The notes under the pieces are model-generated. The model was not told the DNA's origin. It was given only the letters and a program-made list of their open reading frames with translations, and did not search any database. A stretch of DNA of 64,000 bases, from positions 33,890 through 97,889 of the forward strand of contig CAZJFS010000001.1 of the NCBI GenBank assembly GCA_964545075.1, in the 5' to 3' direction. The position numbers and the translations under genes are program-made. This stretch comes from an uncultured bacterium (GTDB lineage: Bacteria > Muiribacteriota > UBA9980). Positions within the stretch are counted from its first letter, which is position 1. Every line of letters begins with the position of its first letter. Shown here piece after piece: positions 7,859-49,621 of the stretch.

Positions 7859-8461
7859 TTAATGTTGGAATTTTTCCTTGACGTTTTTAAGGCCGCCTGA
7901 AATTTTTTCAAAAGTTTCGCCTGTATAATATTCTTTCATCCTGTTGGTATCGCTTAACGGCTCTTTCTCATCTTCACCGTCTTTTTCAAACCTTATGGTT
8001 ATAAGAACGACAAGAAGGTAAGCGATCAGAAGCATCGTATTAACGAAATCGGCCCTGTAAAAAGATTCAAGGACCGCCGCGCTTTCTATCTTGCCGCGAT
8101 TTTTAGCTATTTCAAGCGCGCTGGTTCCGTTAACGTCGGTTTTATCGTATCTGGCGCCGTATTTTAATAGCAGGGAAACAGTTTCGGCATTATCCGACGG
8201 ACTCATAGCGGCAAACATAAGAAGGGTCGTTCCGCCAGGACCCGCGGCGTTCACATTCTCGCCTTTTTCAAGAAACGATCTTAAACTTGCCGAATCGCCG
8301 CGATACGCAGCCGCCATAGCCGCCGTCATAACGGGGCCGGCCTGTTGTTCTTCCGGGCCGCCGCTTTTAAAGGTCTGACCATAAGCCATATTAACGAAAA
8401 TCAATGATAAAACGATCGAATATAATATGTTTTTATAGAAGCGGTAAAATAAGTTTTTCAT
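7859..8461 (-). CDS. Ankyrin-repeat protein with N-terminal signal peptide and C-terminal TM segment
   Basis: Signal-like N-terminus (IVLSLIFVNMAYGQ). Ankyrin repeats (GTTLLMFAAMS...LLLKYGARYDKTDVNGTSALEIAKNRG). Hydrophobic stretch near the C-terminus (MLLIAYLLVVLITI). Confidence 0.6.
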   Translation of the reverse strand: MKNLFYRFYKNILYSIVLSLIFVNMAYGQTFKSGGPEEQQAGPVMTAAMAAAYRGDSASLRSFLEKGENVNAAGPGGTTLLMFAAMSPSDNAETVSLLLKYGARYDKTDVNGTSALEIAKNRGKIESAAVLESFYRADFVNTMLLIAYLLVVLITIRFEKDGEDEKEPLSDTNRMKEYYTGETFEKISGGLKNVKEKFQH

Positions 8462-8651: not shown

Positions 8652-10052
8652 TTAATTTTTCATTAAAAAATGAAGATTGGCGATCGAAATGCCGCTTAAG
8701 ATGGCCCCGATAATGCCAAGAAATCCCTGATCGGTGCCGCAAATAAAAAGATTTTCAATATGGGTCGTTCCGTTCTTCGACTTGTTCTCGGCGCCGTAAA
8801 CCGCGCCGTTTATATGGCCGGTAAAGCGTTTAACGGTCTTGGGCGTGAAAATATCGTAAAATTTGATCATATCCTCTTCGAAATCAGGAATATATCTTTT
8901 AACCGTATCAATAGTTCTTATAAGGACGTCATCTTTGGCTTTTCTGTATTCGTCGCGTTCAAGCGATTCCCATATATCGTGGTTTGCCATGTTGGTCACT
9001 CGAAGCATATTGTCCCGAAGGGGTTTTTCATATTTAAAATTATTGGGGCAGCAGAGCACTCCGCTAGAATAATCAACTATTTCGTGAGGCATTCTGTAAT
9101 TGAATTTTTCAGAATCGTTATAAAAAATTATAGTGTGCTTATGGCCGAGATCCGCCGGAGGCTTATCGAGAAGAAGTATGACCTCGGTAAATGAAAGTTT
9201 TCCGGGCTTAGCGTCTTTCGAACGCCTTTCACTTTCCGGCCTGTCGGAACACATATCGAGGGTTTCGGGAAGCCCGATAGACGATAATATTTTCGGCGCG
9301 GATAGTTCCTCGCCCGAATCGAGCGTGACTGAAACGGCGCGTCCGTCCTTGATATTGATGGATTTAACCCCGGTTTTGAGACGCAATTCACCGCCGCTTT
9401 CAGCGAGCCGCCTTTCAAGCATCGAAATTATGCGGCGCACCCCTTCATAGGGACGCGAAAACCCTTCAAGGAATATACTTTTAAACATTATTACAAACTG
9501 GCCGAATTCCATATCGTTCTCTATTGCGCTACCGTAGTATGAAAGCGGGCAAAAGATCATTTCGACGAGCAGCGGATCTTTTATAAAGCCGGAAACAATA
9601 TCCCGCGCTGAAAGAGGTTTCGCATTCAGATCGAGTTCATTATAACTTTTGACGTGGGATAACAATTTTTCGAAATTATCCTTTTCGGCTGGAAATGCTT
9701 CATGGATGCCGGATCTGAAATATTGAAAATCATTAGTGAAATTAAGAGTGGCGCCTTTGAAATTGATCTGGGAGCCGGCCTGAGGAAAGAGGCCGAAATC
9801 CTCGTGCTTAAGCCGAAGCTGGCGCAGGATCTTCAGAAAAGGAGTGAGCTGTTTTGTTTCAGGCGGAACAAAATTGGTCATCGCGTGAAGGCCGACGTCT
9901 AAGTCGTAACCCCCGCGCCTGTAATAAGAATTCAGCCCGCCGGCGGCGAAGTGACGTTCTAAAAGGCAGACTTTACGCCCATAATGGGACAGCCTTATGC
10001 CGGCGGCAAGAGCTGACATTCCCGCGCCTATTATTATAGCGTCGTAAGACAA
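8652..10052 (-). CDS. FAD-dependent oxidoreductase, phytoene-desaturase (CrtI)-like family
   Basis: N-terminal Rossmann motif DAIIIGAGMSALAAGIRLSHYGRKVCLLERH. Last gene of the unidirectional ole/fab-like operon. Confidence 0.6.
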   Translation of the reverse strand: MSYDAIIIGAGMSALAAGIRLSHYGRKVCLLERHFAAGGLNSYYRRGGYDLDVGLHAMTNFVPPETKQLTPFLKILRQLRLKHEDFGLFPQAGSQINFKGATLNFTNDFQYFRSGIHEAFPAEKDNFEKLLSHVKSYNELDLNAKPLSARDIVSGFIKDPLLVEMIFCPLSYYGSAIENDMEFGQFVIMFKSIFLEGFSRPYEGVRRIISMLERRLAESGGELRLKTGVKSINIKDGRAVSVTLDSGEELSAPKILSSIGLPETLDMCSDRPESERRSKDAKPGKLSFTEVILLLDKPPADLGHKHTIIFYNDSEKFNYRMPHEIVDYSSGVLCCPNNFKYEKPLRDNMLRVTNMANHDIWESLERDEYRKAKDDVLIRTIDTVKRYIPDFEEDMIKFYDIFTPKTVKRFTGHINGAVYGAENKSKNGTTHIENLFICGTDQGFLGIIGAILSGISIANLHFLMKN

Positions 10053-10111: not shown

Positions 10112-10363
10112 TTATCTGTCTTTAAGGTGAGGCCTTAAATACTCGACGCAACCGTCAAGAGTCGCGAGTTTCATGTAATCTTCCTCGGGAACGTCAATTT
10201 TATAACGTTTGCGAAGTTCCATTATGATATCGAGGAAATCCATCGAATCCAGTTCGATCTGATCGCGAAGGCGCACGTCAGGCTTAATATTGGTTAGATC
10301 AGCGTCAGGCGCTATGTCGGCGACGATTTCAAGTATGAGGTCTTTGATCTGTTGATCTGTCAT
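10112..10363 (-). CDS. Acyl carrier protein
   Basis: 83 aa, acidic, with the phosphopantetheine attachment motif LDSMDFLD. Confidence 0.7.
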   Translation of the reverse strand: MTDQQIKDLILEIVADIAPDADLTNIKPDVRLRDQIELDSMDFLDIIMELRKRYKIDVPEEDYMKLATLDGCVEYLRPHLKDR

Positions 10364-10420: not shown

Positions 10421-11665
10421 TTACTTTTTATATTTTTTTACTATTACGACCGAATTTATCCCGAGCATTCCGAAGCTCATATTAAGGATGTATTCGATCT
10501 TTTCGGCCTTAACCGGCTTATTCGCGACAAGGTTCGGAAAAGCGCACTCGGGTTCGAGATCGTCGATATTTATCGTCGGATGGACGATATTGTCGTTGAA
10601 CGAATCCAGGTTCCCGGCAAGTTCAAGAGCGCCCGCCGCGCCCATGGTATGGCCTATAAAGCTTTTGGTGTTGTTGACATAGGCGCGTGTTTTTTCGCCG
10701 AATACCGATCTTATAGCTTTGCATTCGGAGATATCGCCCTGCGGCGTCGAAGTCGCGTGGGTGTTGATCAGATCGATATTTTCGGGCGCGAGCTTAGCGT
10801 TCGAAAGCGCGAGTTTTATGCATTCCGCCTGGCGTTCCGAACAGGGAAGTACGAAATCGGTAGCGTCCGAATTCGATGCGTAGCCTGCTATTTCGGCGTA
10901 TATTTTAGCGCCGCGGGCGAGGGCGGAACTGAGCCTTTCAATAACGTATATGCATCCGCCTTCGGAAATGACTATGCCGTTTCTGGCTTTATCGAAAGGC
11001 CTGCAGGCCTTCGTCGGATCGGCGTGAGTCGCGAGCGCGCCCTCGTTCTTGAAGCTCGCGAATATCCCGAAAGTATGGATCGCTTCGGAAACTCCGCCGG
11101 CCAGAGCCATATCGATATCGCCCATTTTAAGCATCTGAAAACCCTGAATCGTGCCAAGGTTTCCCGCGGCGCAAGCGCCGCCGATGGTATAATGCGGACC
11201 GGTTATTTTAAGATTTAAGGTCACTTCGCCGGCCGGATTATTTGCGACCGTACGGGGATTATGATGGTGCGACCACAGTTTCGTGTCATAGCCGCACTGG
11301 GAAAGATTATAAACTTCATTCTCGGTCTCGACGTTTCCGTGTTCGGTAGTTCCAACATAAACGCCTACCCTTGACCTGTCGAGCTTTTCAAGATCAACGC
11401 CGGCGTCGGCGAGCGCCTCGTTCGCGCAGTATATGCTGATGGAACCGGCGCGCGTGCCTCTTCTGAGCTCTTTTTTCTTCTGATATTTAAGAGGATCGAA
11501 ATTACATATTCCAGCGATGGTTTCACCGATATAACGCGTTTCAAACTTTTGAACGCCTGATACGCCGTTTAAAAGATTGTTACGAAACTCCGCAAGCGTG
11601 TTGCCGTTCGGAGACGTCAAGCCGACGCCCGTGATAACGATTCTTTCATCTAAATAGCTGGTCAT
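10421..11665 (-). CDS. Beta-ketoacyl-ACP synthase I/II family (FabF/FabB-like)
   Basis: Active-site Cys in TIGGACAAG. The two His motifs NTHATSTPQGD and IGHTMGAAG. Typical KAS length of 414 aa. Confidence 0.8.
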   Translation of the reverse strand: MTSYLDERIVITGVGLTSPNGNTLAEFRNNLLNGVSGVQKFETRYIGETIAGICNFDPLKYQKKKELRRGTRAGSISIYCANEALADAGVDLEKLDRSRVGVYVGTTEHGNVETENEVYNLSQCGYDTKLWSHHHNPRTVANNPAGEVTLNLKITGPHYTIGGACAAGNLGTIQGFQMLKMGDIDMALAGGVSEAIHTFGIFASFKNEGALATHADPTKACRPFDKARNGIVISEGGCIYVIERLSSALARGAKIYAEIAGYASNSDATDFVLPCSERQAECIKLALSNAKLAPENIDLINTHATSTPQGDISECKAIRSVFGEKTRAYVNNTKSFIGHTMGAAGALELAGNLDSFNDNIVHPTINIDDLEPECAFPNLVANKPVKAEKIEYILNMSFGMLGINSVVIVKKYKK

Positions 11666-11749: not shown

Positions 11750-12247
11750 TTATTTCTCGTTTTTTTTATTTTTTTGAAGGCTTATTATAAATTCAAGGGT
11801 CTCCCGAAATTTTGGCGTCCACCCTACCGGCTGAAAGGTTTCGGGCTTTACTTTCGCTATCGAACGCCGGCCGCTGCAATATATAGTTTCCCGGTCTTCC
11901 GAAATAAAAGCGACCTTGAACGTCGCCCCTGCTTCACGAAGCTTTTCGGGCGCGATCGAAACGTAAAAAGAAACGACGCCGAATATAGGCTTATGATACG
12001 TAAGCTCGATCCCGTGGACGACATGGTGCAGGTCAGGATATTTTACTATGTCAAAGCCTTCGATAACACCCGCGGCGTTGAAAAACAAATATGTCGCCCG
12101 CTCTAAAATATAAGAATACCTTGAATTATGAAGCATGTTAAGCGGGTCCAGCTCGTCGAAATTGGAATTCATTTTAACATAGAATACGCCTTTTTCAAGC
12201 TTTTCTTCAATGGACGCCGTATTTATTATTATTTCGCTGTCTTTCAT
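11750..12247 (-). CDS. Hotdog-fold thioesterase-like protein
   Basis: 165 aa, 4HBT/acyl-ACP thioesterase-like size and pattern, embedded in a lipid-synthesis operon. Assignment is from context and weak motif similarity only. Confidence 0.4.
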   Translation of the reverse strand: MKDSEIIINTASIEEKLEKGVFYVKMNSNFDELDPLNMLHNSRYSYILERATYLFFNAAGVIEGFDIVKYPDLHHVVHGIELTYHKPIFGVVSFYVSIAPEKLREAGATFKVAFISEDRETIYCSGRRSIAKVKPETFQPVGWTPKFRETLEFIISLQKNKKNEK

Positions 12248-12316: not shown

Positions 12317-13309
12317 CTATAAAGTTTTTAAATATTCGATCAATTTTTTAAACCCTTCTTCGGTTGAAACAGAAGCTTTATAACCGAAATCTTTTTTAGC
12401 GCGCGATATGTTAAAATAATGATGTTTTGAAAACTGCGACGCTATAAACCTCGTCATGGGCGGTTCGGATGAGGGAAAAAGCGCGCCATAAATTTTTTCA
12501 AGGCAAAAACCCAGCCTGTACGCGAAACCGAAGGATACCTTTTTGTCGATTGGCTCTATACCCACTCCGAGCAAAATCTTATTTATAAATTCCCATAAAA
12601 GCACCGGCTCGCCCTGGCTGATAAAATATGCCGACCCGGCGAGTTTAGAATCTTTTGAAAGGGCGTCGGCGGCGAGCAAATGCGCGTCGGCGGCGTTATC
12701 GATATAAGTTATATCCACGCGGTTAAGCCCATTTCCGACGATCTTAAGCTTGCCTTTTTTTACATATTTAATGATGCGCGCCATAATTTGTTTATCTCCG
12801 GGGCCCCATATCAGATGCGGCCTCAGGGAGACGGTCAAAAGCCCGTTGGTTCCGTTGTTGCGAAGGACCCGCCGTTCAGCCTCGGCCTTTGTTTCGGAAT
12901 AATAAAAGAGATGGTTTTTAGCGTAAGGCGTGGATTCATCAACATTCATAAGATCGGTGTCGGCGAATACTACGCTCGCGGTACTCGTATATATGAGTTT
13001 CTTTACGCCATGTTTGAGGCAGCCGTCTATTACATTCGTCGTTCCGCGCACGTTCACATCGTAATAATCTTCGTACTTGCCCCAGAATCCCTCTTTGGCT
13101 CCGACATGAAAGACCATATCCATTCCGGCGCACGCGTCCGAAACCTTAACGTTATCCGCAAGATCACACTCGACGGATCTTACGCCGAGTTTTTCAAGTT
13201 CAAGGTATTTATGACGGTTCAGGATCGTAACATTTACGCCTTTTTCAACGAGTTTTTTCACTATGACCGATCCAAGAAAACCGCCGCCGCCGGTTACGAG
13301 AGCGTTCAT
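12317..13309 (-). CDS. oleD: OleD-like NAD(P)H-dependent reductase (3-beta-HSD / sugar epimerase family)
   Basis: Rossmann motif MNALVTGGGGFLGSVIVKKL. Start re-assigned to ATG at 13309: the upstream in-frame extension overlaps oleC, and the TGAcATG junction places the start 1 nt after the oleC stop. Lies directly downstream of the oleC homolog. Confidence 0.7.
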   Translation of the reverse strand: MNALVTGGGGFLGSVIVKKLVEKGVNVTILNRHKYLELEKLGVRSVECDLADNVKVSDACAGMDMVFHVGAKEGFWGKYEDYYDVNVRGTTNVIDGCLKHGVKKLIYTSTASVVFADTDLMNVDESTPYAKNHLFYYSETKAEAERRVLRNNGTNGLLTVSLRPHLIWGPGDKQIMARIIKYVKKGKLKIVGNGLNRVDITYIDNAADAHLLAADALSKDSKLAGSAYFISQGEPVLLWEFINKILLGVGIEPIDKKVSFGFAYRLGFCLEKIYGALFPSSEPPMTRFIASQFSKHHYFNISRAKKDFGYKASVSTEEGFKKLIEYLKTL

Positions 13310-13310
13310 G

Positions 13311-15008
13311 TCAATTACGCTCCTTTTTAAGCATATCGAAAGCCCATATTGAAAGTTTCTCCCGGAATATTTTTGCGTTATGACGGATGTCAACCGGCAT
13401 TTTTTCTATGAATAGAATATTTTCAATGTCTTTCGTAAGTTCCGAGTCCTTACCGATCTTTTCAAGCTCAACTCTTATATTTTCAACGCGGTTCTCGTCT
13501 TTAAGGATTTTAGGATCTTTTAATTCTATGACGATAACCGGTTTTTGATAGAGCCTTTCGCCGCAACCGACGAGGGCCGACCTGAAAACTTCGGGGTGAT
13601 TGTTGAATATCGCTTCGCATTTTATAGTGAAATAGGTTTTTTCGCCTGACACGACCCTGTGATCTTTCCGTCCGCAAAACCAAAGGCGGCCGCGTTCGTC
13701 AAGATATCCGGCATCGCCCATTCTATGCCATACTTTGGAGCCGTCATAAATTTTAGAAAGCGTCGTCGCGCGGGCGTTGTTATAATATTCTTTCGTCACG
13801 ACTGGGCCGGAAACGACTATTTCTCCGATTTCGCCGGTTTTTAAGCACAGGCCTTCTTCCCAGCGCGGTAGCGGCTCATCCGTTATCTTAATTATTCGCG
13901 CCTCCATTCCCTTTATAGGCTTCCCGACGCATATGCCTTCGCCCTTCTGAGTTTTAGCCCAGGTTTCGCCGCATATTTCATCTCCCGAGATGCTGCACGT
14001 CGGAAGCGATTCGGTCGCGCCGTAAGGAGTATGGACGTCGCCGCCCTCACCGAGCATTTTTTTGACCCGGCCGATCAGTTCGCCCGAAACCGGCGCCCCG
14101 GCTATCAATATTCGTTTTATAGAATTTAACTTTATGTTTTTCGAATTGCAATAATTACTGACCCGGTTCCATATCGCCGGAGACCCGAAGGAACTTGTTA
14201 TTCCGTGATTTAAAATAGCCTCCACTATATTTTCGGGTTTCACGGACGCGGGCTTCGTGGGGTCCATATCCGGAATAACGCAGGTCGTTCCAAGCGCCAC
14301 GTTAAAAAGCGCGAAAAGCGGAAAACCAGGAAGTTCCATTTCGTTTTCGCCGAATTTATAAGCTTCGTGCAAAAGCGCGATCTGCGCGCCGAACATTTTA
14401 TGTTCGTATAAAACGCCCTTGGCCGGGCCGGTGCTGCCTGAAGTAAAGAGTATCGCGGCCGGATCGCTTCCGCGCGTTTCGCACATTTTAAAGTTAACGC
14501 TTCCCTTTTCGCGTATTTTATCAAGCGTCAGGCCGCCCCAGAATATGCGCTTACCGACGGTAACGTTATATCTCACTTTTTTGAAATGCCATCTGAATAT
14601 AGCCCTGATAGCCTGAGCGACCGGTACGCCGATGACAGCCTCCGGCTCGACGTACGATATGCATTTTAACATATTGAACGGACCCATTCCGGGGTCGATA
14701 AGTATTGGAACGGCGCCTATTTTAAACAGCGCGAAGGTAAGGGTTATAAATTCAAGGCTGGGCCTCACCATTAAAAGCGTCTTCGTGCCTTTACCCATGC
14801 CGTATTTAGAAAGTCCGTCCGCGTACCTGTCGCATTCTTCGTTCATCTGCTGAAATGTAAAATGCGAATACGCCACGTGGCCGGCGGCGTCACGGCCGGC
14901 GGGAAAAACTACGGCGCGCTTGTACGGCATTATCTCCGCCATATAAGGAAGATAGGAGGCTATATTGAATTTTTCATTTTTATAATCAGGTTTTTCTTTT
15001 ATCATCAT
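13311..15008 (-). CDS. oleC: OleC-like AMP-dependent synthetase/ligase (beta-lactone synthetase family)
   Basis: AMP-binding core FTSGSTGPAKGV. N-terminal region LLMVRPSLEFITLTFALFKIGAVPILIDPGMG matches the conserved OleC pattern (MVRPSxEF..FALFKxGAVPxLxDPG). 565 aa. Confidence 0.7.
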   Translation of the reverse strand: MMIKEKPDYKNEKFNIASYLPYMAEIMPYKRAVVFPAGRDAAGHVAYSHFTFQQMNEECDRYADGLSKYGMGKGTKTLLMVRPSLEFITLTFALFKIGAVPILIDPGMGPFNMLKCISYVEPEAVIGVPVAQAIRAIFRWHFKKVRYNVTVGKRIFWGGLTLDKIREKGSVNFKMCETRGSDPAAILFTSGSTGPAKGVLYEHKMFGAQIALLHEAYKFGENEMELPGFPLFALFNVALGTTCVIPDMDPTKPASVKPENIVEAILNHGITSSFGSPAIWNRVSNYCNSKNIKLNSIKRILIAGAPVSGELIGRVKKMLGEGGDVHTPYGATESLPTCSISGDEICGETWAKTQKGEGICVGKPIKGMEARIIKITDEPLPRWEEGLCLKTGEIGEIVVSGPVVTKEYYNNARATTLSKIYDGSKVWHRMGDAGYLDERGRLWFCGRKDHRVVSGEKTYFTIKCEAIFNNHPEVFRSALVGCGERLYQKPVIVIELKDPKILKDENRVENIRVELEKIGKDSELTKDIENILFIEKMPVDIRHNAKIFREKLSIWAFDMLKKERN

Positions 15009-15066
15009 TATTATCTTATAAGCCCTTTAATGTTTTTATCAGGAACACTCGTTCCAGCGGATTCGC

Positions 15067-15948
15067 TTATTTTTTCAGAAACTCTTTTATCCACGGAATT
15101 ATACGTTCATGCGCATCTTCTAAAACGTAATGCCCTGCGTCCGGTATATTTCTGATGTCGGCATCGGGAAAAAGGAAACGCCATTTTTTCAAGAACTCGA
15201 TCCTGAAGCAAAAGTCCTGCGCGCCCCACGCTATAAGCATCGGTTTTTTCTTTAAAAGCGCTAATTTTTCTTCTATTTCAACCAATTGCGAATAACTTTT
15301 ATCATTTTTAGAAAACGGCACGTCCTCAACGAAGCGCAGCGTGGCGATCCTGTCGTGATAATTTCCGTACGGCGCGAGATATCCCAGTTTAACTTCAGGC
15401 GTCATGCGCTCCTGTTTTGAAACCGCCATGCGAACGGCCGCCCTGGCGAAAGCGTTGAAGCACCTGACCGCTATGGTACCGAAAACCGGTATTCTGCAAA
15501 GGTTTATCCTGAAAGGGAATAAATTTGAACGCCAGGCCGCCGTATTTGAAATAACAAGTTTTTTTATGTTTTCAGGATGCCTCGTGGCGTAACCCATTCC
15601 AATGGGACCGCCCCAGTCGTGAACGATGAGCGTTATATTTTTAAGCCCGAGAGTTTCGATTAAATATTCCAAATTCGATATATGATTCGAGAGCTTGTAT
15701 TCATAATCCCGCGGTTTATCGGATAAGCCGCAGCCGATATGATCGGGCGCTACGGCCCTGTATCCGGAGTCTTTAAGAGCGGAAATAAGATTTCTGAAAT
15801 AAAACGACCACGTCGGATTTCCGTGCACCATGACGACGGGTTCACCCGCGCCTTCGTCAACGTAATGATAATTATGGCCTTCTATTTTTAAAAAATGGGA
15901 TTCAAAGGGATATAATTCCTTGAATCCGCTGATATCTGTTTTATTCAT
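15067..15948 (-). CDS. oleB: OleB-like alpha/beta hydrolase (haloalkane-dehalogenase-like)
   Basis: HYVDEGAGEPVVMVHGNPTWSFYFRN...IVHDWGGPIG is the haloalkane dehalogenase-like signature. Positioned between the oleA and oleC homologs. Confidence 0.7.
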   Translation of the reverse strand: MNKTDISGFKELYPFESHFLKIEGHNYHYVDEGAGEPVVMVHGNPTWSFYFRNLISALKDSGYRAVAPDHIGCGLSDKPRDYEYKLSNHISNLEYLIETLGLKNITLIVHDWGGPIGMGYATRHPENIKKLVISNTAAWRSNLFPFRINLCRIPVFGTIAVRCFNAFARAAVRMAVSKQERMTPEVKLGYLAPYGNYHDRIATLRFVEDVPFSKNDKSYSQLVEIEEKLALLKKKPMLIAWGAQDFCFRIEFLKKWRFLFPDADIRNIPDAGHYVLEDAHERIIPWIKEFLKK

Positions 15949-16018
15949 TTTTTTATTCTCCGGTAAGATTTACGAACTTCTTTAGCGGCGGCGAATTTAT
16001 TGCTTATTCACTTTATAA

Positions 16019-17113
16019 TTACCACTCGATTCCGAGCATCAGGCAGTTAATTCCGCTGCCTATCCCAAGCATCGCGAGTTTCTGGCCTTTTTCAATGAGA
16101 CCCTGGTCCACCGCAAGCGCGGCGGTTATGGGAAGCGAAACGGACCCGACGTTCCCCAGAAACTCAAAGGTTGAAAAATCTTTATTAAGGTTAAGATCGA
16201 GCGAGTTATATATCGCGCGGCGGTGCATGGTCCCGACCTGATGGCAGAATATGCGATCCGGCGTATCGTTAGTCCAGGCAAGTTCCTGCTTCATGTTGTT
16301 CCAGTTTTCTTTAGCCAGTTCACATCCGCTCACTAAAAGCGCTTCGGCATTGGTGCACATATGAGGCATATTCGCGGCGTCGCCGTTTTGCGGGGCATCA
16401 CCGTTAGTATCGTCATTGGCTTTTAATGACATGTTCCCCGTGCCGCCTCTGCATAGGGCGTTATGCTCGGTCGCGGCCATGAAGGAACCGCCGACGAGCT
16501 TATGTTTCGCCTTAGATACCGAAATATCCGTCATAACTACAGCCGCGGCCCCCGAACCTATCGTAAGCGAGGGAAATGAATCCTTGATTTTATTTCTGGT
16601 GAGGTTATCGACGTTATTTAAAAGATCGGCAATCGTTCTTTCATAAAGCTGCCCGGCGTTTTCACCGGCCACTACCATGCCGCTTTTAACCTGTCCCAGT
16701 TCTATCATATTAGCGAGCATTATCACGCCATTGATAAAACCAAGGCATGCGTTGGAAATATCAAAAACCATGGATGTTTTTGGAAGTCCGAGATTATCGT
16801 GAACTACCGTCGCCGTCGCCGGCTCTAAAAAATCGCGAGAAACGGAGGCGTGAATAAGGCATTCGATCGATGAGGGATCTATACCGGCGCGTTCGATCGC
16901 CATTTTACCGGCTTTCGTGCTGACGTCACTCGGCATGGTGCCAGCCTTCCAGAAACGGCGTTCCCGGATGCCCGTCATCATCTCGAGCCTGCCCTGCGGC
17001 AGCTTGAGTTTTTCATAAAGCGGGGCTAATCTTTTTTCGATTTCTTCGGATGTGACGACACATTCGGGTATTTCGTACCCAAACGCTTCAATGCATACGC
17101 GTCTGTATTGCAT
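16019..17113 (-). CDS. oleA: OleA-like thiolase (KAS III / FabH superfamily condensing enzyme)
   Basis: N-terminus CIEAFGYEIPECVVTSEEIEKRLAPLYEKLKL...GIRERRFW follows the OleA/FabH pattern. Active-site Cys region ISNACLGF. It is the first gene of the oleABCD-ordered operon. Confidence 0.65.
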   Translation of the reverse strand: MQYRRVCIEAFGYEIPECVVTSEEIEKRLAPLYEKLKLPQGRLEMMTGIRERRFWKAGTMPSDVSTKAGKMAIERAGIDPSSIECLIHASVSRDFLEPATATVVHDNLGLPKTSMVFDISNACLGFINGVIMLANMIELGQVKSGMVVAGENAGQLYERTIADLLNNVDNLTRNKIKDSFPSLTIGSGAAAVVMTDISVSKAKHKLVGGSFMAATEHNALCRGGTGNMSLKANDDTNGDAPQNGDAANMPHMCTNAEALLVSGCELAKENWNNMKQELAWTNDTPDRIFCHQVGTMHRRAIYNSLDLNLNKDFSTFEFLGNVGSVSLPITAALAVDQGLIEKGQKLAMLGIGSGINCLMLGIEW

Positions 17114-17362
17114 GTTGAATGCTCTTCCTTTATTCAGTTTTATTTACAAAAAAACTTTTTGTAAAATAAGATGTACGACAAACCGAAAACCTTTTGCTTT
17201 TAAAGAATTTCCAGTTCAGAAAAAGCAGAATTTTCATAAATACTTTCGCATCAATGAAAAAACTTATTCAATTAAATTTAGTTTAACACAATTCGAAGGT
17301 TTTGTCAATACCCAAAATCGCAAAAAAATATTTAGATCGTTATCCATTCAAAAACAGCTATT

Positions 17363-17602
17363 TTATATGCACCGCTCGACATCTTTCATAGAAACTTCAT
17401 CTCGGGATTCGTATCCGCAGTTCTCGCAATATCCCGCTATTGAATATACCGAATAGCCATAAGAATCTTTTCCGACATACTGCACGCTCTTCTCGTCATA
17501 AAAATAGAACGGCTCGCTGCATCCGATGCAGAAATTAACGGCCCTGGATATTTTTTCAAGATCATTCGCGAGAAAATCGTTTTCTTTCAATTTATCCTCC
17601 AT
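17363..17602 (-). CDS. Small zinc-ribbon-like protein (two CxxC pairs)
   Basis: 79 aa with CIGC...CENCG. Lies in the long 17.1-17.8 kb intergenic region. No further homology recognisable. Confidence 0.3.
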   Translation of the reverse strand: MEDKLKENDFLANDLEKISRAVNFCIGCSEPFYFYDEKSVQYVGKDSYGYSVYSIAGYCENCGYESRDEVSMKDVERCI

Positions 17603-17780: not shown

Positions 17781-18830
17781 ATGAGCGATAAAAATGAATT
17801 GGAATTGTTTTTAACGAAGGACGTTAAAGACCTCCTGGATTTCATATTTGATGGAATATACGTCGTCGATACCGATAGAAAAATAGTTTTCTGGAACAAA
17901 GGCGCCGAAAATATGACGGGATACAAACAGGATAAAGTTCGCGGCCGGAAATGCAGCGACAATATCTTAAACCATATCGACTGCGACGGAAATCTCGTAT
18001 GCTTATGCGATACATGCCCATTAAAACGCGCCGTTGAAATGGATAAGGAATCAATATATAAACTTTATCCGCTTCATAACGACGGCCACCGCTTCCCTGT
18101 TTCAACGCATATAAGCCCGGTTAAAAATAAGGAAGGTAAAATAATCGGAGCGATAGAAGTATTCCGCGACATTTCCGAGCAGGAAAAACTCGACGCGCTT
18201 CAAAAAAAATTCGATAAACTCGTCCGACAATATATTTCAGTATCCACATACGACTCTATAATAAAAGAGGTTTCAAGCGGCGGTAAAATAAAAGGCGTTT
18301 TAAAGGATATGACCGTATTTTTCATGGATATCGTCAGCTTCACCACGTTCAGCGAAAAACACAAGCCGGAACAGGTGATCGAAATGCTCAATTATTTTTT
18401 CTCGGTCTCGACGCATGTAATAAAAAATAATACCGGAGATATAGATAAATTTATAGGCGATTGCGTAATGGCGATCTTCATAGACGCGTCCGACGCCGTA
18501 AAAGCCGCGAAGGAATTTATTAACGAAGGCCTTCCGTCTCTAAACGAAATGCTTAAACAAAAAGGGCTTCAAAATATAAACGTTCGCATCGGCATAAACA
18601 GCGGAAATCTTATTCAGGGCGATATAGGTTCCGACGCGAGAAAAGATATGACCGTAATAGGAGATGTCGTAAACACCGCTTCAAGGGTAGAACATGAAGC
18701 GCGGCACGGCTCTTTTATGATATCCGAAAGCACTTATTCAAGATTACCGAATCCTCATGATTTCGAATTCGACAAGGAGATACTTCTTAAAGGAAAAGCA
18801 ATACCGGTAAAACTTTTCAGACCAAAATAA
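17781..18830 (+). CDS. PAS-domain class III adenylate/guanylate cyclase
   Basis: N-terminal PAS (FDGIYVVDTDRKIVFWNKGAENMTGY). The cyclase homology domain has the metal-binding Asp (FFMDIVSFTTF) plus FIGDCVMAIF and IGINSGNLIQGDIG...GDVVNTASRVE. Confidence 0.8.
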   Translation: MSDKNELELFLTKDVKDLLDFIFDGIYVVDTDRKIVFWNKGAENMTGYKQDKVRGRKCSDNILNHIDCDGNLVCLCDTCPLKRAVEMDKESIYKLYPLHNDGHRFPVSTHISPVKNKEGKIIGAIEVFRDISEQEKLDALQKKFDKLVRQYISVSTYDSIIKEVSSGGKIKGVLKDMTVFFMDIVSFTTFSEKHKPEQVIEMLNYFFSVSTHVIKNNTGDIDKFIGDCVMAIFIDASDAVKAAKEFINEGLPSLNEMLKQKGLQNINVRIGINSGNLIQGDIGSDARKDMTVIGDVVNTASRVEHEARHGSFMISESTYSRLPNPHDFEFDKEILLKGKAIPVKLFRPK

Positions 18831-18913: not shown

Positions 18914-19543
18914 TTACTTTTGAACGCCGACTAGCGCCTGGATCAGACGCTCGGGTTTGAAGGGTTTTGTTACAAAGTCACGCGCGCCAAGTTCTCTGGA
19001 TAATATGACATCCTGCATCGAGCGGCTGGCGGTGACCATTATGACCTCAACTGGCCTTTGAAGCTGGGTCTTTATGACCTTTAAAAATTCGAAGCCGTTT
19101 ACTTCGGGCATTTTGATATCGAGGAAAACCGTGCTTATATGCGGATCGCTGACAAGATGATTCCACGCCTCCAATGCGCTGTTGGCCATCAGCACCTTAT
19201 GGTCTTTTTCCTCGAATATATCTTTCATATAATTGCAGATATCCGCTTCGTCATCAACGACAAGAACCTTTTGTGGAATAACTCGGGCCGGAAGCTGATA
19301 ATCCAGGGTAGAATGCATTTTGGTTTCAAGAACTTCAGCCGTTTCCTCTTCTTTATCGTCATAAACGTATGCGAGACCGACGCCAAATTCCATCGCTTTT
19401 TGGATCGCGTTTTCATCGAGAATATAATTCTTAGCGAACATAATAATGCTGGATTCCCGTGCATAAAAAAGCGGCTTGCTAAGCTTCATTCCAGGTTTTA
19501 ATTCGCTTGTGTGAAGTAAGAGTACTCCCATAAAAATCTCCAA
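18914..19543 (-). CDS. Response regulator with inverted architecture: N-terminal DUF3391-like domain, C-terminal REC
   Basis: N-terminus ELKPGMKLSKPLF...GVGLAYVYD follows the DUF3391 pattern normally found upstream of HD-GYP domains. C-terminal receiver VLVVDDEADI...VFLDIKMPEVNGFEFL...K. Paralog of the adjacent gene. Confidence 0.6.
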   Translation of the reverse strand: MEIFMGVLLLHTSELKPGMKLSKPLFYARESSIIMFAKNYILDENAIQKAMEFGVGLAYVYDDKEEETAEVLETKMHSTLDYQLPARVIPQKVLVVDDEADICNYMKDIFEEKDHKVLMANSALEAWNHLVSDPHISTVFLDIKMPEVNGFEFLKVIKTQLQRPVEVIMVTASRSMQDVILSRELGARDFVTKPFKPERLIQALVGVQK

Positions 19544-19604: not shown

Positions 19605-20276
19605 TTAATTTTGAAGAGCCTTAGTGAGCCGTTCAGGCGAAAAAGGTTTTGTCACATAATCGCGCGCGCCAAGTTCCCTGGATAGTATAAAATCCTGCAT
19701 CGAACGGCTGGCCGTAACCATTATAACCTCGACCGGCCTTGGAATCTGGCTTTTTATCATTTTAAGAAGTTCAAATCCGCCTATTTCAGGCATTTTGACA
19801 TCCAAAAAAACAGTGTTGATGCTGGGATCGCAGATCAAATGAGACCACGCTTCGTTGACGTTCTGAGCCGTTAAAACTTTATAGTTTTTATCTTCGATTA
19901 TCATTTTAATGTAGTCGCAGATATCTTTTTCGTCATCAACGATCAAAACCTTGGCGGCGGTTTCCCCCTGGAAAGTTTGAGCGGCCAGCGCCATCATGGG
20001 CATTTGGCTTTCCGCCCGCACCGGTATCTGCGGCGCCGGGACGCCAGCGCCGGACGTATCAACTTTATTTTCAGACGCTTTAGGCGGATCAGGCGGCGCG
20101 CTCTTATCGTAAATATAAACAAGACCGACGCCGTTATATATGGCCTTTTTGATCGATTCAGAATTGAGGACATAATCTTTAGGAAAGAGTACCATGCTTG
20201 AGTTTTTAGTAAAAAGCGGTTTGCTCAGCTTCATTCCAGGCTCAAGTTTCTCGGTCTGTATCAGCATGTCGCGCAT
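19605..20276 (-). CDS. Response regulator paralog: N-terminal DUF3391-like domain, Pro-rich linker, C-terminal REC
   Basis: N-terminus EKLEPGMKLSKPLF...GVGLVYIYD. Receiver VLIVDDEKDI...VFLDVKMPEIGGFELL. Same domain order as 18914..19543, with which it shares the LSKPLF / YxYD N-terminal motifs and the receiver motifs listed. Confidence 0.6.
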   Translation of the reverse strand: MRDMLIQTEKLEPGMKLSKPLFTKNSSMVLFPKDYVLNSESIKKAIYNGVGLVYIYDKSAPPDPPKASENKVDTSGAGVPAPQIPVRAESQMPMMALAAQTFQGETAAKVLIVDDEKDICDYIKMIIEDKNYKVLTAQNVNEAWSHLICDPSINTVFLDVKMPEIGGFELLKMIKSQIPRPVEVIMVTASRSMQDFILSRELGARDYVTKPFSPERLTKALQN

Positions 20277-29708: not shown

Positions 29709-31352
29709 ATGAAAAAAATATTACTTGTTGCGATAGTTTTATTATTAATCTGCGGCGGCGCGGCGCGCGCGGAAAACACATTTGATGATCTGAAAAAGAA
29801 AGCCGCAAGCGGAGACGCGGCTGCGCTGGGGCTTTTAGGCGAAGCGTATTCCTGCGGCTGGAACGGCGCGCCAAAAGACGATAAAAAAGCCGTCGAATGT
29901 TTTGAAAAAGCGGCCGCGCAGGGCGATCCTGTCGGTCAATACTATATGGGAACGATATTTTATTTCGGCAATACGGTTAATAAAGATTATAAGAAAGCCG
30001 CGGAATGGTTTGAAAAAGCCGCGCTTCATGGCGAGATCAGGGCCCAGGGCAATATCGCGATGATGTATTACGAGGGAACCGATTTCCCTCAGAACAATAT
30101 CATGGCTTACGCATATTATAATATCATCGCCTCGGGTCCGACCGCGGATCCGATCAGTAAAAAAGCGGCCGCTGAAAGCCTCGATAAACTTCAAAAAAAA
30201 ATGAGCCCGCAACAGATCGATAAGGCTAAAGAAAAAAGCCGGGATCTGTTAAAAAAGATCGATGAAAATTTTAAAAAAACTAAAATAACGCCGGCGGCGC
30301 CTAAGTATCCGGTTAACACGGCAAGAATCCTCAAAACCGATGAAATATTTATTGAGGCCGTATCTTCGCTGGACATTAAAACGATCAACGAATTAATAAA
30401 AAAAGGCTATAAAATTAAAGATCTTCCTTCCGATTACGCGCCTGTGTTAATAACGGTGATCGGTTCGCAGAACGCTAATTTCGCCAGATTCATGGGGGCC
30501 AAGGCGGAAGCCGCGAAAGGTTACACGGAAGAGTCACTAAAAAAATCGGTCGCAGCCAAAAAAAACGTTGTTTTTAAATTACTGGCCGAAAACGGAGCGG
30601 AATGTAACATAGCGAACAGCGGCGGAGAAAAACTTATCGCTCTTGCCGCAGCGACAGGCGATTCCGAAATAGTTAAATACCTTCTCGCCAAAAAGAGCGA
30701 CGTGACAAACCTGAATAAAAACGGCGACGATCTCTTATACTGCGCCATAGGTTCACATTCTTTAGAAACTGTCAAGACTGTAGTTGAAAGCGCTTATGGA
30801 CCAGGACTTATCAAATCAGGCGCGCGCTCGGCGGCCAGGGCGGCCACTTTAAAAGAAGACGGCATTTTAAAGTATTTGATTGAAAAAGGAATTAATATAA
30901 ATGGCAATACCGGAAGCGCCGCAGGAAATGAAAGCGGAAACAATTCCTCATGGAAACCTTTAAAAGCCGCACTATACAATAAAAATATCGACGCCCTCAA
31001 ACTTCTTATAGAAAAAGGCGCGGACTTAAAAATAATCAATAAGAACGGTGAGAACTGCCTTTTCGAATTAACGGGAGGCATTACCGGCGATGAGATGGAT
31101 GACAAAACAGTTGAAATCGCTAAAATGCTCGTAGCCCGCGGCGTAACCGCCAACATCAAAAACAACTCCGGCGAAACAGTATTAATGATGGCCGCCAGGA
31201 ATGGAAGCGTGCCCTTCATGAAATTTTTGATTGAAAACGGCTCCGATGTGAACGCGAGAAATAATAACGGCATTACGGCAATGGGTTACGCTAAAAAAGC
31301 CAGGCAGCAAAATTCGATCGCGTTTCTCAATTCCGTTAACGCCGTTGAATAA
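29709..31352 (+). CDS. Secreted Sel1-repeat + ankyrin-repeat protein
   Basis: Signal peptide MKKILLVAIVLLLICGGAARA. Sel1-like repeats (GDAAALGLLGEAYSCG...AVECFEKAAAQGDPVGQYYMG...AAEWFEKAALHGEIRAQGNIAMMY). C-terminal ankyrin repeats (GETVLMMAARNGSVPFMKFLIENGSDVNARNNNGITAMGYA). Confidence 0.65.
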   Translation: MKKILLVAIVLLLICGGAARAENTFDDLKKKAASGDAAALGLLGEAYSCGWNGAPKDDKKAVECFEKAAAQGDPVGQYYMGTIFYFGNTVNKDYKKAAEWFEKAALHGEIRAQGNIAMMYYEGTDFPQNNIMAYAYYNIIASGPTADPISKKAAAESLDKLQKKMSPQQIDKAKEKSRDLLKKIDENFKKTKITPAAPKYPVNTARILKTDEIFIEAVSSLDIKTINELIKKGYKIKDLPSDYAPVLITVIGSQNANFARFMGAKAEAAKGYTEESLKKSVAAKKNVVFKLLAENGAECNIANSGGEKLIALAAATGDSEIVKYLLAKKSDVTNLNKNGDDLLYCAIGSHSLETVKTVVESAYGPGLIKSGARSAARAATLKEDGILKYLIEKGININGNTGSAAGNESGNNSSWKPLKAALYNKNIDALKLLIEKGADLKIINKNGENCLFELTGGITGDEMDDKTVEIAKMLVARGVTANIKNNSGETVLMMAARNGSVPFMKFLIENGSDVNARNNNGITAMGYAKKARQQNSIAFLNSVNAVE

Positions 31353-42178: not shown

Positions 42179-44461
42179 TTGAATAAAAAAATTATTTTTA
42201 AAAACCACTTTCATGTCGAAATCATCGATTCCGATAGTTGCGTCATACTGGTTTCCGAAAATTCGAACTTTGTCCTGAAAGGCCGGCTTTATTGCCTCAT
42301 CGCAAGAATGCTCGACGGTTCGAAAGACGCCGATGAAATAGTCGACGCGCTGGAAACCGAAGTTTCAGGGGCCGAGGTTTATTTCACGCTTGAAAAGCTC
42401 AAGCATAAAGGCTATATTACCGAAAAAAACGAAACCGTGTCTTCAACATTCGCCGCTTACTGGAGCCTTCTTGGCGTTTCCGAATTCAGCGCAAAAGAAG
42501 CGCTTGAAAACACGCTTATCAAATTAACGGCGATCGCTGATACAGATGTCGGGCCGCTTGAAGTCGCGATAAAAAACGCCGGCATGAGCGTCGAAGTATG
42601 CGGAACCGACAGCGCATTCGAAGGAAAGCACCGGGCAAGACAAATTATCGTGATCGCGGCTCCTGATTATCTTTATCCTGAACTTTTCGAAATAAACAGA
42701 AACTCCATCAAAAAAAACATTCCATGGATGCTCATCAAGCCTTCAGGCGCGATCATCTGGATCGGCCCTATTTTTATTCCGGGTAGGACCGGCTGCTTTG
42801 AATGCCTCGCTCAGCGCCTTAAAACCAATCGCGACATCGAAATGTTCATCCAATCGAAAAAAAATGATCTTTCGCCTATCGTCACATCGAGAGGAACCAT
42901 TCCGTCAAGCGTTCAAATGGCGTATCAGATGGCCGCCCAACAACTGGCGATCTGGGCGGTGCAAAACGAAGGAGCGAACCTGGCCGGACGCGTCATAAGC
43001 GTAAACACCACTACGCTTTTATCGCAGGAGCATATTTTAACGAAACGTCCGCAATGTCCTGCCTGCAATATAGGTTCACCCGCGGATGAAAAACCTAACC
43101 CGCCCGTCCTGAAAAGCATAATCAAAGATACCGATTCACTTTACGGCGGCTGCCGGACGATGAGCCCGGAGGAAACTTTCAATAAATTTTCAAACCACGT
43201 AAGCCCTATAACCGGAGTGGTAAATTCCCTGGTCAAGGCCGAAAGCGGCAGCGACGGAATCTTGAACGTTTACTTCGCCGGCCAGAATTCGGCGATGCGC
43301 AACAATAACATCATGGCGCTTCAAAAAAATCTGCGCAGCATGAGCGCGGGAAAAGGCATAACTGAAATAGCCGCCAAAACCGGTGCTTTATGCGAAGCAA
43401 TTGAAAGATATTCAGGTCTTTATAACGGCAACGAGCCTAAAATAAAAACAAGCTATTCTAAAATAAAAGATCAGGCCGTTCTACCCAACGACTGCATGAA
43501 TTACAGCGACGAACAATTTAAGAACAGGAACATAATAAACTCTCAAGGCCATCATTTCCAGACGGTTCCGGAACCGTTCGATGAAAACGCCGTCGTCGAA
43601 TGGACGCCATTTTGGTCGCTCGAAAAAAAAGAATGGCGTTACGTCATCTCCAGCTATTGTTACTACGGTTATCACGACCCCGAAGGGCATTTTTTTTCGT
43701 GGCCGAATTCGAACGGATGCGCGTCAGGCAATACACTCGAGGAAGCTATTCTACAGGGATTTTTCGAAATAAACGAACGCGACGCTGTAGCCCTGTGGTG
43801 GTATAATATGATAAAAAGGCCTGCCGTGGACCTCGAAAGTTTTAACATCGCCTATATCGAAAAATTATATTACGCGTATAAAAAGAAGAACAGGAAATTC
43901 TGGGTGCTCGACATTACCAGCGATACCGGAATTCCGACTTTTACGGCCGTCTCTTACAAGCCGGATTCGGACCGCGAAGAAATAGTTTTCGCCTTCGGGT
44001 CTCATTTCGACCCCAAAACGGCGCTTATAAGAGCGCTCACGGAAATGAATCAGTTCATGCCTTCCGTCCTCGAAGATTCTCCCGGCGAGTATTCATTCAA
44101 GGACCCGTTCGTAACGTCGTGGTGGAAGAACGCTAAACTCCGTAATGAATCATATCTGGCTCCGGATAAGACTCAGCCGGCCAGAAAGCTGTCGGATTTC
44201 AATGATATTTCGTCTAACGATATGCTCGCGGATATTAACCGGTGCGTGAATTTGATGGATGAGCGCGGCATGCGGACGCTTATACTGGACCAGACCCAGC
44301 CGGACGTCGGATTGAACGTGGTTAAAATCATAGTGCCTGGAATGCGCCATATGTGGCAGCGTCTCGGCCCCGGAAGGTTATACGACATACCAGTCGAAAT
44401 GGGATGGCTCAAAAAACCTAAAAAAGAAAATGAAATGAATAAAACCGCCATTTTCGTTTAG
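42179..44461 (+). CDS. Fused E1-like (ocin-ThiF/RRE) + YcaO azoline-forming cyclodehydratase (PatD/TruD-like), copy 1
   Basis: 760 aa. Two CxxC motifs (GRTGCFECLAQRL, RPQCPACNIG), as in the Zn-binding PatD/TruD class. YcaO motifs GKGITEIAAKTGALCEAIERYSG and FFEINERDAVALWWYN. TTG start as called; the true start is uncertain. Confidence 0.85.
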   Translation: MNKKIIFKNHFHVEIIDSDSCVILVSENSNFVLKGRLYCLIARMLDGSKDADEIVDALETEVSGAEVYFTLEKLKHKGYITEKNETVSSTFAAYWSLLGVSEFSAKEALENTLIKLTAIADTDVGPLEVAIKNAGMSVEVCGTDSAFEGKHRARQIIVIAAPDYLYPELFEINRNSIKKNIPWMLIKPSGAIIWIGPIFIPGRTGCFECLAQRLKTNRDIEMFIQSKKNDLSPIVTSRGTIPSSVQMAYQMAAQQLAIWAVQNEGANLAGRVISVNTTTLLSQEHILTKRPQCPACNIGSPADEKPNPPVLKSIIKDTDSLYGGCRTMSPEETFNKFSNHVSPITGVVNSLVKAESGSDGILNVYFAGQNSAMRNNNIMALQKNLRSMSAGKGITEIAAKTGALCEAIERYSGLYNGNEPKIKTSYSKIKDQAVLPNDCMNYSDEQFKNRNIINSQGHHFQTVPEPFDENAVVEWTPFWSLEKKEWRYVISSYCYYGYHDPEGHFFSWPNSNGCASGNTLEEAILQGFFEINERDAVALWWYNMIKRPAVDLESFNIAYIEKLYYAYKKKNRKFWVLDITSDTGIPTFTAVSYKPDSDREEIVFAFGSHFDPKTALIRALTEMNQFMPSVLEDSPGEYSFKDPFVTSWWKNAKLRNESYLAPDKTQPARKLSDFNDISSNDMLADINRCVNLMDERGMRTLILDQTQPDVGLNVVKIIVPGMRHMWQRLGPGRLYDIPVEMGWLKKPKKENEMNKTAIFV

Positions 44462-44482
44462 TTATATTAAAAAGGATTCAGA

Positions 44483-45916: not shown

Positions 45917-45918
45917 TT

Positions 45919-47271: not shown

Positions 47272-47360
47272 TGGCATTCACTGATTTATCCGTGATTTTT
47301 CCATTCATGGATATTTCTTAATTCCGCGGCGAAAAAATATAATAAACGAAGGCGTGAATA

Positions 47361-49592: not shown

Positions 49593-49621
49593 ATGGCAGG
49601 TTTTAAATTTTGGAGGAATAA

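Follow-up and report, generated by a model that had tools for sequence, protein, structure and literature searches.

A predicted oleABCD hydrocarbon locus with an adjoining ketosynthase, acyl carrier protein and CrtI-fold flavoenzyme in an uncultured bacterium

Described pathways and the layout of the locus

Head-to-head hydrocarbon biosynthesis by OleA, OleB, OleC and OleD has been described in Xanthomonas campestris and Stenotrophomonas maltophilia, and both the four enzyme families and the A-B-C-D gene order of these species recur in the DNA analyzed here, a 64,000-nucleotide stretch (the window) of contig CAZJFS010000001.1 from an uncultured bacterium. Common to both are the Cys, His and Asn of OleA together with the Glu of its LEP motif, the catalytic pentad of OleB, the adenylation motifs of OleC and the Tyr-Lys pair of OleD, whereas the inter-domain loop of the window OleA is 24 residues longer than that of X. 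campestris. An ole locus of the Lysobacterales (L022) encodes OleA, OleB, OleC and OleD proteins 36, 46, 43 and 41% identical to those of the window but differs from it in that the four extra genes found after oleD in the window were not detected beside its oleABCD. We favor, with some reserve, the reading that a single run of eight genes in the window specifies both the Ole pathway of head-to-head hydrocarbon synthesis and a supply of acyl chains of its own.

The Pfa-Ole-PfaT system of Shewanella and Photobacterium, whose product is C31:9, likewise links an ole operon to an acyl-chain factory with its own acyl carrier protein (ACP) and hotdog thioesterase. There, OleA is reported to mediate the connection between the Pfa synthase and the Ole enzymes, most likely via the ACP domains of Pfa, and PfaT, a hotdog thioesterase with genetic linkage to pfa/ole operons, is required for the full yield of hydrocarbon (PMC6463001). 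Of 80 genomes examined, 44 have pfa-like clusters together with ole genes (PMC3098273), and n-C31:9 is characteristic of Gemmataceae planctomycetes (PMC7534041). In contrast to the multidomain polyketide-type synthase of the Pfa-Ole systems, the window carries discrete type II proteins and a flavoenzyme of the CrtI fold, and neither a pfa-type megasynthase nor a ketosynthase of the polyketide synthase type is found in its 64 kb. The gene considered as a pfa synthase, which encodes 2633 aa at 49622-57523, was rejected: it is a nonribosomal peptide synthetase (NRPS) with condensation, AMP-binding, PP-binding and reductase domains, and it belongs to a separate YcaO/radical-SAM cluster.

Type II fatty acid synthesis (FASII) clusters of anaerobes offer another comparison. 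Desulfotalea psychrophila, which has no pfa genes, makes C31:8 and C31:9 hydrocarbons; the phytoene-dehydrogenase-like proteins DP1860, DP2405 and DP2406 are encoded in its fatty-acid-synthesis clusters, and an anaerobic desaturase extension of FASII that would yield polyunsaturated chains was proposed (Rattray et al. 2009, PMC2649909). Going by these descriptions, the FASII clusters of D. psychrophila and anammox bacteria are like the window in having a FabF paralogue, an ACP and amine-oxidase/phytoene-dehydrogenase-like flavoenzymes (DP2405/DP2406 and Kuenenia Kuste3336/3607) but differ from it in their radical-SAM enzymes, which are absent from the module of the window (PMC2649909). That study predates the 2010 papers on the ole genes and does not connect the clusters to ole (PMC2649909), and papers of 2023 and 2026 still describe the function of phytoene-dehydrogenase-like enzymes in such clusters as unproven (PMC10139942, PMC13459092). 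A precedent for the proposed role of such a flavoenzyme, again likened by description, is UfaD of the Rhodobacter sphaeroides furan fatty acid pathway, a proven fatty-acyl desaturase with a predicted NAD/FAD-binding domain and similarity to phytoene dehydrogenases/desaturases (PMC7380195). UfaD differs in acting on a phospholipid-bound methylated 18:1 chain, apparently with O2, and in having no ACP, ketosynthase or ole context.

As the initial annotation of the window had claimed, oleA, oleB, oleC and oleD are four contiguous open reading frames (ORFs) of the minus strand in this order, at the coordinates below, and the gaps between them are 70, 58 and 1 nt, the last being the single base between the oleC stop and the oleD start (TGAcATG). 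The same annotation treated the four genes as the whole operon. The oleABCD set is indeed complete, but the run does not end at oleD, since four more minus-strand genes follow down to position 8652, with gaps of 69, 84, 57 and 59 nt. The eight genes and two associated features are as follows.

17280-17308, minus strand: sigma-70-like promoter match, TTGACA-17-TAAACT plus extended TG, roughly 170 nt upstream of the oleA start codon
16019-17113, minus strand: oleA, 364 aa; thiolase-superfamily enzyme predicted to catalyze the head-to-head Claisen condensation; Glu97, Cys123, His291, Asn321
16361-16444, minus strand: expanded inter-domain loop of OleA, residues 224-251, GTGNMSLKANDDTNGDAPQNGDAANMPH
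15067-15948, minus strand: oleB, 293 aa; subfamily III haloalkane-dehalogenase-like alpha/beta hydrolase; Asn44, Asp111, Trp112, Asp245, His273
13311-15008, minus strand: oleC, 565 aa; homologue of the beta-lactone synthetase, ANL superfamily
12317-13309, minus strand: oleD, 330 aa from ATG; reductase of the 3-beta-hydroxysteroid dehydrogenase (3-beta-HSD)/extended short-chain dehydrogenase/reductase (SDR) family
11750-12247, minus strand: hotdog-fold thioesterase-like gene, 165 aa; YbgC/4HBT class; Asp34
10421-11665, minus strand: FabF-like ketosynthase gene, 414 aa; Cys165, His303, Lys334, His339
10112-10363, minus strand: discrete ACP gene, 83 aa; Ser40 in an LDSMD motif
8652-10052, minus strand: FAD-dependent oxidoreductase gene of the CrtI/CrtD fold, 466 aa, TTG start; GxGxxG at residues 9-14

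As listed, the oleD ORF begins further upstream, at a TTG within oleC (13393). The promoter-like site before oleA is the best match found and agrees with the consensus at 10 of 12 positions, which is a consensus match only; a Shine-Dalgarno-like stretch, AAGGAAGAG, lies about 12-20 nt before the oleA ATG, and consensus matching gave no minus-strand terminator between any of the eight genes. A scan of the whole 64-kb window gave no Rfam family (tRNA, riboswitch or small RNA) at the gathering score. Because the eight genes lie on the same strand with gaps of 1-84 nt, no terminator match between them and a promoter-like site before oleA, and because their order is kept in relatives, they probably form one operon. 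A sister contig (L042, GCA_964551445.1) has the identical eight-gene order, and its proteins, those of the flanking genes included, are 82-96% identical to those of the window; one further relative (L041) carries all eight genes, and three others (L038-L040) carry the set minus the flavoenzyme. As to affiliation, HNY13136.1, a protein from a Candidatus Wallbacteria metagenome-assembled genome (MAG), is identical to the ketosynthase of the window, a match that assigns the window to this candidate phylum, and among the nearest relatives of the window OleA, at 72-76% identity, are proteins labelled Wallbacteria. In species-representative genomes, the best match to OleC reaches 49% identity.

The Ole enzymes of the window

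OleA scores 454 bits against the NCBIfam model NF006720 (cut-off 285), whereas FabH models reach at most 111 bits, all far below their own cut-offs. Among solved structures, it is closest to those of X. campestris OleA (E 4e-62), with FabH at 6e-20 or weaker. Residues Glu117, Cys143, His285 and Asn315 of X. campestris OleA correspond to Glu97, Cys123, His291 and Asn321 of the window protein and are invariant in an alignment of 16 sequences including X. campestris, so that both the active-site Cys and the Glu for which the initial annotation had proposed an alignment check are in place. By its family membership and active-site residues, the window OleA is expected to carry out the non-decarboxylative head-to-head condensation of two long acyl chains. 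Its identity is 37% to X. campestris OleA and 35-41% to OleAs from ole loci of the Desulfobacter, Lysobacterales and Bdellovibrionota types. In a neighbor-joining tree of 62 OleA sequences, which carries no bootstrap support, the window OleA pairs with that of metagenome locus L122, and the pair is sister to a large clade of OleAs that are linked to the ketosynthase module described below and are 49-57% identical to the window OleA. X. campestris OleA and its Lysobacterales relative branch elsewhere in this tree, as do the OleAs of the Desulfobacter/Ozemobacteraceae type.

The Asn/Asp/Gly-rich insertion that the initial annotation noticed in OleA is real, although its length had been overestimated at about 50 aa. 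Between the invariant G223 and M252, the loop has 28 residues in the window and in the sister contig, compared with 17 in five aligned relatives, 14 in most and 4 in X. campestris OleA, an excess of about 24 aa over Xanthomonas and of 11-14 aa over relatives. It separates the two halves of the thiolase fold, and the HMMER match to X. campestris OleA breaks exactly there. Between the window and the sister contig, the loop codons show 12 synonymous differences and 1 non-synonymous difference (114 and 14 over the whole oleA gene), and the loop is therefore translated and constrained. An origin by tandem duplication or low-complexity slippage was rejected, since Tandem Repeats Finder (TRF) finds nothing and the loop is under purifying selection. 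It is a lineage-specific expansion of a variable loop.

For OleB, the best solved relative is DhmeA (8CKP; E 1.5e-49), an enzyme of subfamily III of the haloalkane-dehalogenase-like family, the subfamily that also holds X. campestris OleB. N44, D111, W112, D245 and H273 of the window protein align to N63, D129, W130, D258 and H286 of DhmeA. All 13 other OleB orthologues compared have the Asn, Asp and Trp of this pentad unchanged, and all 13 also have the acid Asp and the base His, in one of them offset within an HxxxED motif. A Ser-His-Asp triad, which had been expected of OleB in the first reading of the sequence, was a mistaken expectation: what is present is the OleB-type pentad Asn/Asp/Trp/Asp/His, with Asp as the nucleophile. 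The matches of the profile scan include no OleB-specific model, and generic haloalkane dehalogenase models score at most 170 bits (cut-offs 241 and above); the OleB assignment accordingly rests on the pentad and on the position of the gene between oleA and oleC, which point to an OleB-type enzyme.

OleC scores 707 bits against NF006754 (cut-off 478). Two OleC equivalog models give 572 and 556 bits (E 1e-171 and 1e-167) over profile positions 2-541 of 544 and 2-551 of 552, compared with 193 bits for the next ligase model outside Ole. The adenylation core motifs (TSGSTGPAKG at residues 189-198, PYGATES at 328-334 and GRKDH at 446-450) are present and conserved in OleC orthologues, as is a C-terminal PVDxRHNxKI motif (PVDIRHNAKI at 538-547). 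Also present are the peptides singled out earlier as specific to OleC, MVRPSLEF at residues 80-87 and FALFKIGAVPILIDPG at 92-107, in a region that is conserved in looser form in the OleC orthologues of 17 other ole loci. No solved OleC structure was matched at E<=1e-30. OleD has a TGGGGFLG motif at residues 6-13 and the catalytic Tyr137-x3-Lys141, matches PF01073 at 1e-61 and scores 381 and 368 bits (E 1e-114 and 1e-110) against its equivalog models, compared with 138 bits for the next model.

Against these assignments stand the narrow equivalog cut-offs. OleC remains below 900 bits for the Xanthomonas type and 850 for the Shewanella type, and the model names (OlefBLtnSynXan and OlefBLtnSynShew) suggest that they were built for those two lineages. 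The window protein is thus no close orthologue of either, which fits its 36-49% identity to OleC orthologues from ole loci of other phyla, and it is therefore an OleC in the broad sense only. The same caveat holds for OleD, which scores under its narrow equivalog cut-off of 580. When the Ole identity was checked against FabH and other ligases as alternatives, the best family or structure match of each of the four proteins was an Ole enzyme or its parent family, in keeping with the initial annotation. We are thus highly confident that the four genes represent the ole pathway.

The genes after oleD, their linkage to ole genes and the flanking genes

The thioesterase-like protein encoded directly after oleD scores 23.4 bits against Pfam 4HBT_2, slightly under the cut-off, and its profile matches are 5v10, 6fdg and YbgC. 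Its predicted model (predicted local distance difference test [pLDDT] 79.8) has hotdog topology, and the top Foldseek matches of this model are of the YbgC type or are the polyene-ACP thioesterases SgcE10 and DynE7. Asp34, at the position of the catalytic Asp of the 4HBT/YbgC class, is invariant. The family is narrow, with 17 proteins at 64% identity or more, and the gene is kept after oleD in Wallbacteria-type loci. In an Akkermansia muciniphila MAG (L024:12632-13147), a 32% identical homologue lies after oleC-oleD; otherwise the family consists of Wallbacteria-like sequences only. Orthology to PfaT was considered and could not be shown: searches of solved structures and folds gave YbgC/4HBT-class and polyene-ACP thioesterases only, and neither the profile search (E<=10) nor the list of the 50 best Foldseek matches contained a structure annotated as Orf6, the PfaT of Photobacterium profundum.

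The three remaining genes follow the order of a type II fatty acid synthase-like module, with a ketosynthase (Cys-His-His), an ACP (phosphopantetheine-attachment Ser) and a CrtI-fold flavoenzyme. The ketosynthase has its catalytic set Cys165/His303/Lys334/His339, and the usual gating GFGG, with its gating Phe, is replaced by GMLG (NSFGMLGINS) in all ten aligned orthologues. The flavoenzyme is annotated as phytoene dehydrogenase-like, and the best folds for its predicted model (pLDDT 80.8) are the carotenoid desaturases CrtD (4rep) and CrtI (4dgk).

To place the module in context, two sets of loci are compared: 37 species-representative genome loci retrieved with OleC, and 79 metagenome loci retrieved with a ketosynthase alignment (65-78% identical), for which counts cover only loci with sufficient flank. 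In 7 of the 37 genome loci (Pirellulales, Planctomycetota, two Bacteriovoracaceae, Halobacteriovoraceae, Oligoflexia and one Pseudomonadota MAG), ole genes are adjoined by part of the module, which is either the ketosynthase-ACP-flavoenzyme trio or a set made up of a second flavoenzyme and FabG-, FabZ- and FabI-like genes. The trio itself adjoins ole genes in Planctomycetota, Bdellovibrionota, one Pseudomonadota genome and Wallbacteria, and is 62-79% conserved. Across the phyla of the seven genome loci, the ketosynthase is better conserved than the Ole proteins: it is 62-66% identical to that of the window, against 35-49% for OleA, OleB, OleC and OleD.

The metagenome loci show the same module. 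In 69 of 74 informative loci, the gene directly after the ketosynthase encodes an ACP; a flavoenzyme follows the ACP in 53 of 60, and a second flavoenzyme comes next in 38 of 50. An OleA homologue lies within the locus in 31 of 59 cases with at least 1.5 kb upstream, and oleB, oleC or oleD is found in 5 of the 16 loci with long flanks. In 2010, Sukovich et al. reportedly described ole genes as rare in genomes; given such rarity, the count of 31 in 59 is far above chance.

Several of these loci join the module to ole genes in one cluster. In two of them (L083 and L084), the order is oleA-KAS-ACP-FADox1-FADox2-FabG-FabZ-FabI-like-PPTase-oleB-oleC-oleD, a single 12-gene cluster that covers about 7969-20344 in L083 (KAS, ketosynthase; FADox, flavoenzyme; PPTase, phosphopantetheinyl transferase). 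L101 repeats this order, but its FabG-like ketoreductase (KR) and its PPTase were undetected. L122 runs oleABCD-KAS-ACP-FADox, and L102 and L110 run KAS-ACP-FADox1-FADox2-DH-ER-oleA-oleB up to the contig end (DH, dehydratase; ER, enoyl reductase). NCBIfam models identify the remaining parts as FabG-like, FabZ-like, FabI-like and an Sfp/HetI-type PPTase, and the full complement (second flavoenzyme, KR, DH, ER and PPTase) is found in L043, L045, L083 and many other loci. Judged by these family assignments, the fuller clusters would each encode a complete dedicated type II fatty acid synthase plus two CrtI-family enzymes, and the window is a minimal, reduced version of the module.

Other arrangements of the OleA and ketosynthase genes also occur. 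Three loci (L066, L068 and L077) have two OleA-ketosynthase pairs per cluster, in the order small ORF-OleA-KAS-ACP-OleA-KAS-flavoenzyme, and in two (L074 and L075) one OleA gene is flanked by two ketosynthase genes. In module-only clusters, oleA is preceded by a conserved ORF of 133-139 aa that matches no NCBIfam model (L043:6728-7129, L045:6624-7115, with equivalents in many metagenome loci); no counterpart of it is found in the window.

A different neighbor of oleA is seen in the loci of Desulfobacter, Desulfobacula and Ozemobacteraceae, where a Pfa-like megasynthase is encoded. In two of these loci (L034:3052-7308 and L009:770-7993), a PfaC/PfaA-like megasynthase, from ketosynthase (KS) to FabA-type DH, immediately precedes oleA, and in four more (L003, L004, L007 and L008) its presence before oleA is deduced from ORF size and weak KS matches. 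No oleD was found within several kb after oleC in L001 and L034. Thus, ole genes occur alone, beside a Pfa-type synthase or beside the type II module. Our literature search found no paper linking ole genes to a FabF/ACP/phytoene-dehydrogenase module, with Rattray et al. 2009 as the nearest, and no report of ole genes in Wallbacteria, although a remark on either in Sukovich et al. 2010 is possible; the linkage of module and Ole looks like an undescribed variant.

Around the eight-gene run, the window contains genes of other kinds. An ankyrin-repeat protein gene (7859-8461, minus strand) lies directly after the flavoenzyme gene, a position kept in the sister contig, and another ankyrin-repeat protein gene, with Sel1 repeats too, lies at 29709-31352 (plus strand). 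On the other side, a PAS-domain adenylate/guanylate cyclase gene (17781-18830, plus strand) is divergent from oleA, and it is a possible regulator of the cluster, because it is also kept as a neighbor in the sister contig. Between this gene and oleA, upstream of the promoter-like site, is a 78-aa ORF with two CxxC pairs (about 17365-17601, minus strand; zinc-ribbon-like); in the sister contig, the cyclase gene and oleA are separated by only some 290 nt, and a 75-aa gene is found on the far side of the cyclase gene. Next come two tandem paralogues (18914-19543 and 19605-20276, minus strand) that, on visual inspection of the translations, resemble each other in their N-terminal regions and also in their C-terminal regions, which are response-regulator-like. 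The separate biosynthetic cluster mentioned above occupies 42179-58994 on the plus strand.

42179-44461 and 47361-49592, plus strand: YcaO cyclodehydratases
44483-45916, plus strand: ThcOx-like nitroreductase-type oxidase
45919-47271, plus strand: B12-binding radical-SAM enzyme
49622-57523, plus strand: two-module NRPS, 2633 aa, with a terminal reductase domain
57543-58994, plus strand: major facilitator superfamily (MFS) transporter

Proposed route, alternative readings and meaning

From the gene content, gene order, catalytic residues and cross-phylum co-localization observed, we infer the following chemical steps and nature of the product. Neighborhood and family membership suggest that the FabF-like ketosynthase would lengthen a chain on the dedicated ACP, that the CrtI/CrtD-fold flavoenzyme would dehydrogenate or isomerize the ACP-held chain, that the hotdog thioesterase may release, proofread or edit it, and that the modified chain would pass to OleA as acyl-ACP or acyl-CoA. 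From there, following established Ole enzymology, OleA would be acylated on Cys123, Glu97 of the partner subunit would deprotonate the second acyl chain, and a non-decarboxylative Claisen condensation would give a 2-alkyl-3-keto acid. OleD would reduce this with NADPH to the 3-hydroxy acid, OleC would convert the latter with ATP to a beta-lactone, and OleB, with Asp111 as nucleophile, would decarboxylate the lactone to a cis internal olefin. By analogy, the trio would play for Ole the role that the Pfa polyketide-type synthase plays in Shewanella. The product expected from this route is a long-chain olefin with extra unsaturation or another chain modification, not the plain product of housekeeping fatty acids. 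We regard a functional link between the module and Ole as fairly likely; that the product is polyunsaturated is a tentative proposal and, on balance, doubtful.

Several points weigh against an Ole pathway with its own acyl-chain supply. The evidence for all eight genes is computational, and heterologously expressed proteins of the putative anammox ladderane cluster yielded no polyunsaturated fatty acids (PMC10139942). Homologues of the second flavoenzyme, FabG, FabZ, FabI-like proteins and PPTase are absent from the 64-kb window (E<=0.01), and the promoter and terminator evidence for a single operon consists of consensus matching only. In addition, the Wallbacteria relative L038 lacks the flavoenzyme at the corresponding position, and roughly half of those ketosynthase loci whose flanks are usable have no ole gene in reach, so the module is not confined to Ole.

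The last two points also favor a plain oleABCD operon, in which housekeeping fatty acyl-CoAs would become C25-C33 mono-olefins as in Xanthomonas and Stenotrophomonas, and the downstream four genes would belong to an unrelated lipid pathway. In characterized systems, it is established that the four ole genes alone are enough (pathway in PMC6463001). However, the adjacency of module and ole genes recurs in several gene orders and phyla, including clusters in which the module sits between oleA and oleBCD, and the recurrence of OleA in the metagenome loci far exceeds chance if ole genes are as rare as reported. Moreover, the window OleA groups with module-linked OleAs and not with the Xanthomonas type, and the intergenic gaps of 57-84 nt contain no terminator match. 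We consider a plain operon unlikely.

Two further alternatives concern the enzymes themselves, and the improbable one of an OleA that is in fact a FabH-like priming ketosynthase of a dedicated fatty acid synthase module has the lesser claim. A type II synthase normally requires a 3-ketoacyl-ACP synthase III (KAS III) primer, and in module-only clusters an OleA homologue directly precedes the elongating ketosynthase; yet the FabH profiles fall as far short of the OleA-type model as given above, and in the window, L083, L084 and L101, this protein is the sole thiolase able to serve oleBCD. The Glu of the LEP motif (Glu117 in X. campestris) is also invariant in the family, and, going by the structural literature on OleA and the sequence of E. 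coli FabH, this Glu is specific to OleA and is not known in FabH. A FabH-type role is thus scarcely credible. It is also very improbable, if slightly less so, that the pathway ends in a beta-lactone or ketone lipid, either because the chemistry halts at the lactone or because the OleA product spontaneously decarboxylates to a ketone. Many module clusters have oleA and no nearby oleBCD and could end at the ketone, and OleA, OleC and OleD homologues also make beta-lactone natural products, in clusters that, as PMC7064751 describes them, have thiolase, reductase and beta-lactone synthetase chemistry in common with the window. Such clusters differ in that, according to the same paper, OleB is the enzyme of hydrocarbon producers (PMC7064751), and the window has a full-length OleB with the intact Asn/Asp/Trp/Asp/His pentad, encoded between oleA and oleC. 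Since OleB is present, an olefin is expected rather than a beta-lactone as the end product.

The Ole pathway with its own acyl-chain supply thus remains our preferred reading, and its meaning lies in the larger gene set. The four ole genes alone would merely add one more candidate phylum, Wallbacteria, to the likely olefin producers, which is ordinary. A more far-reaching proposal, which we put forward as speculative and somewhat unlikely, is that the full module is a type II route that depends on neither Pfa nor oxygen and leads to polyunsaturated or polyene acyl chains, which OleABCD would make into polyunsaturated hydrocarbons. If true, such a type II route would explain C31:8 and C31:9 in pfa-less anaerobes such as D. 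psychrophila, and it would give a first function to the phytoene-dehydrogenase-like enzymes of fatty-acid-synthase clusters, including the anammox "ladderane" cluster. Tailored long-chain olefins are of interest as fuels and lubricants. The set of 8-12 genes bears on the source of polyunsaturated hydrocarbons in pfa-less anaerobes, a question raised in 2009, and on the role of phytoene-dehydrogenase-like enzymes, which was still termed hypothetical in 2023-2026.

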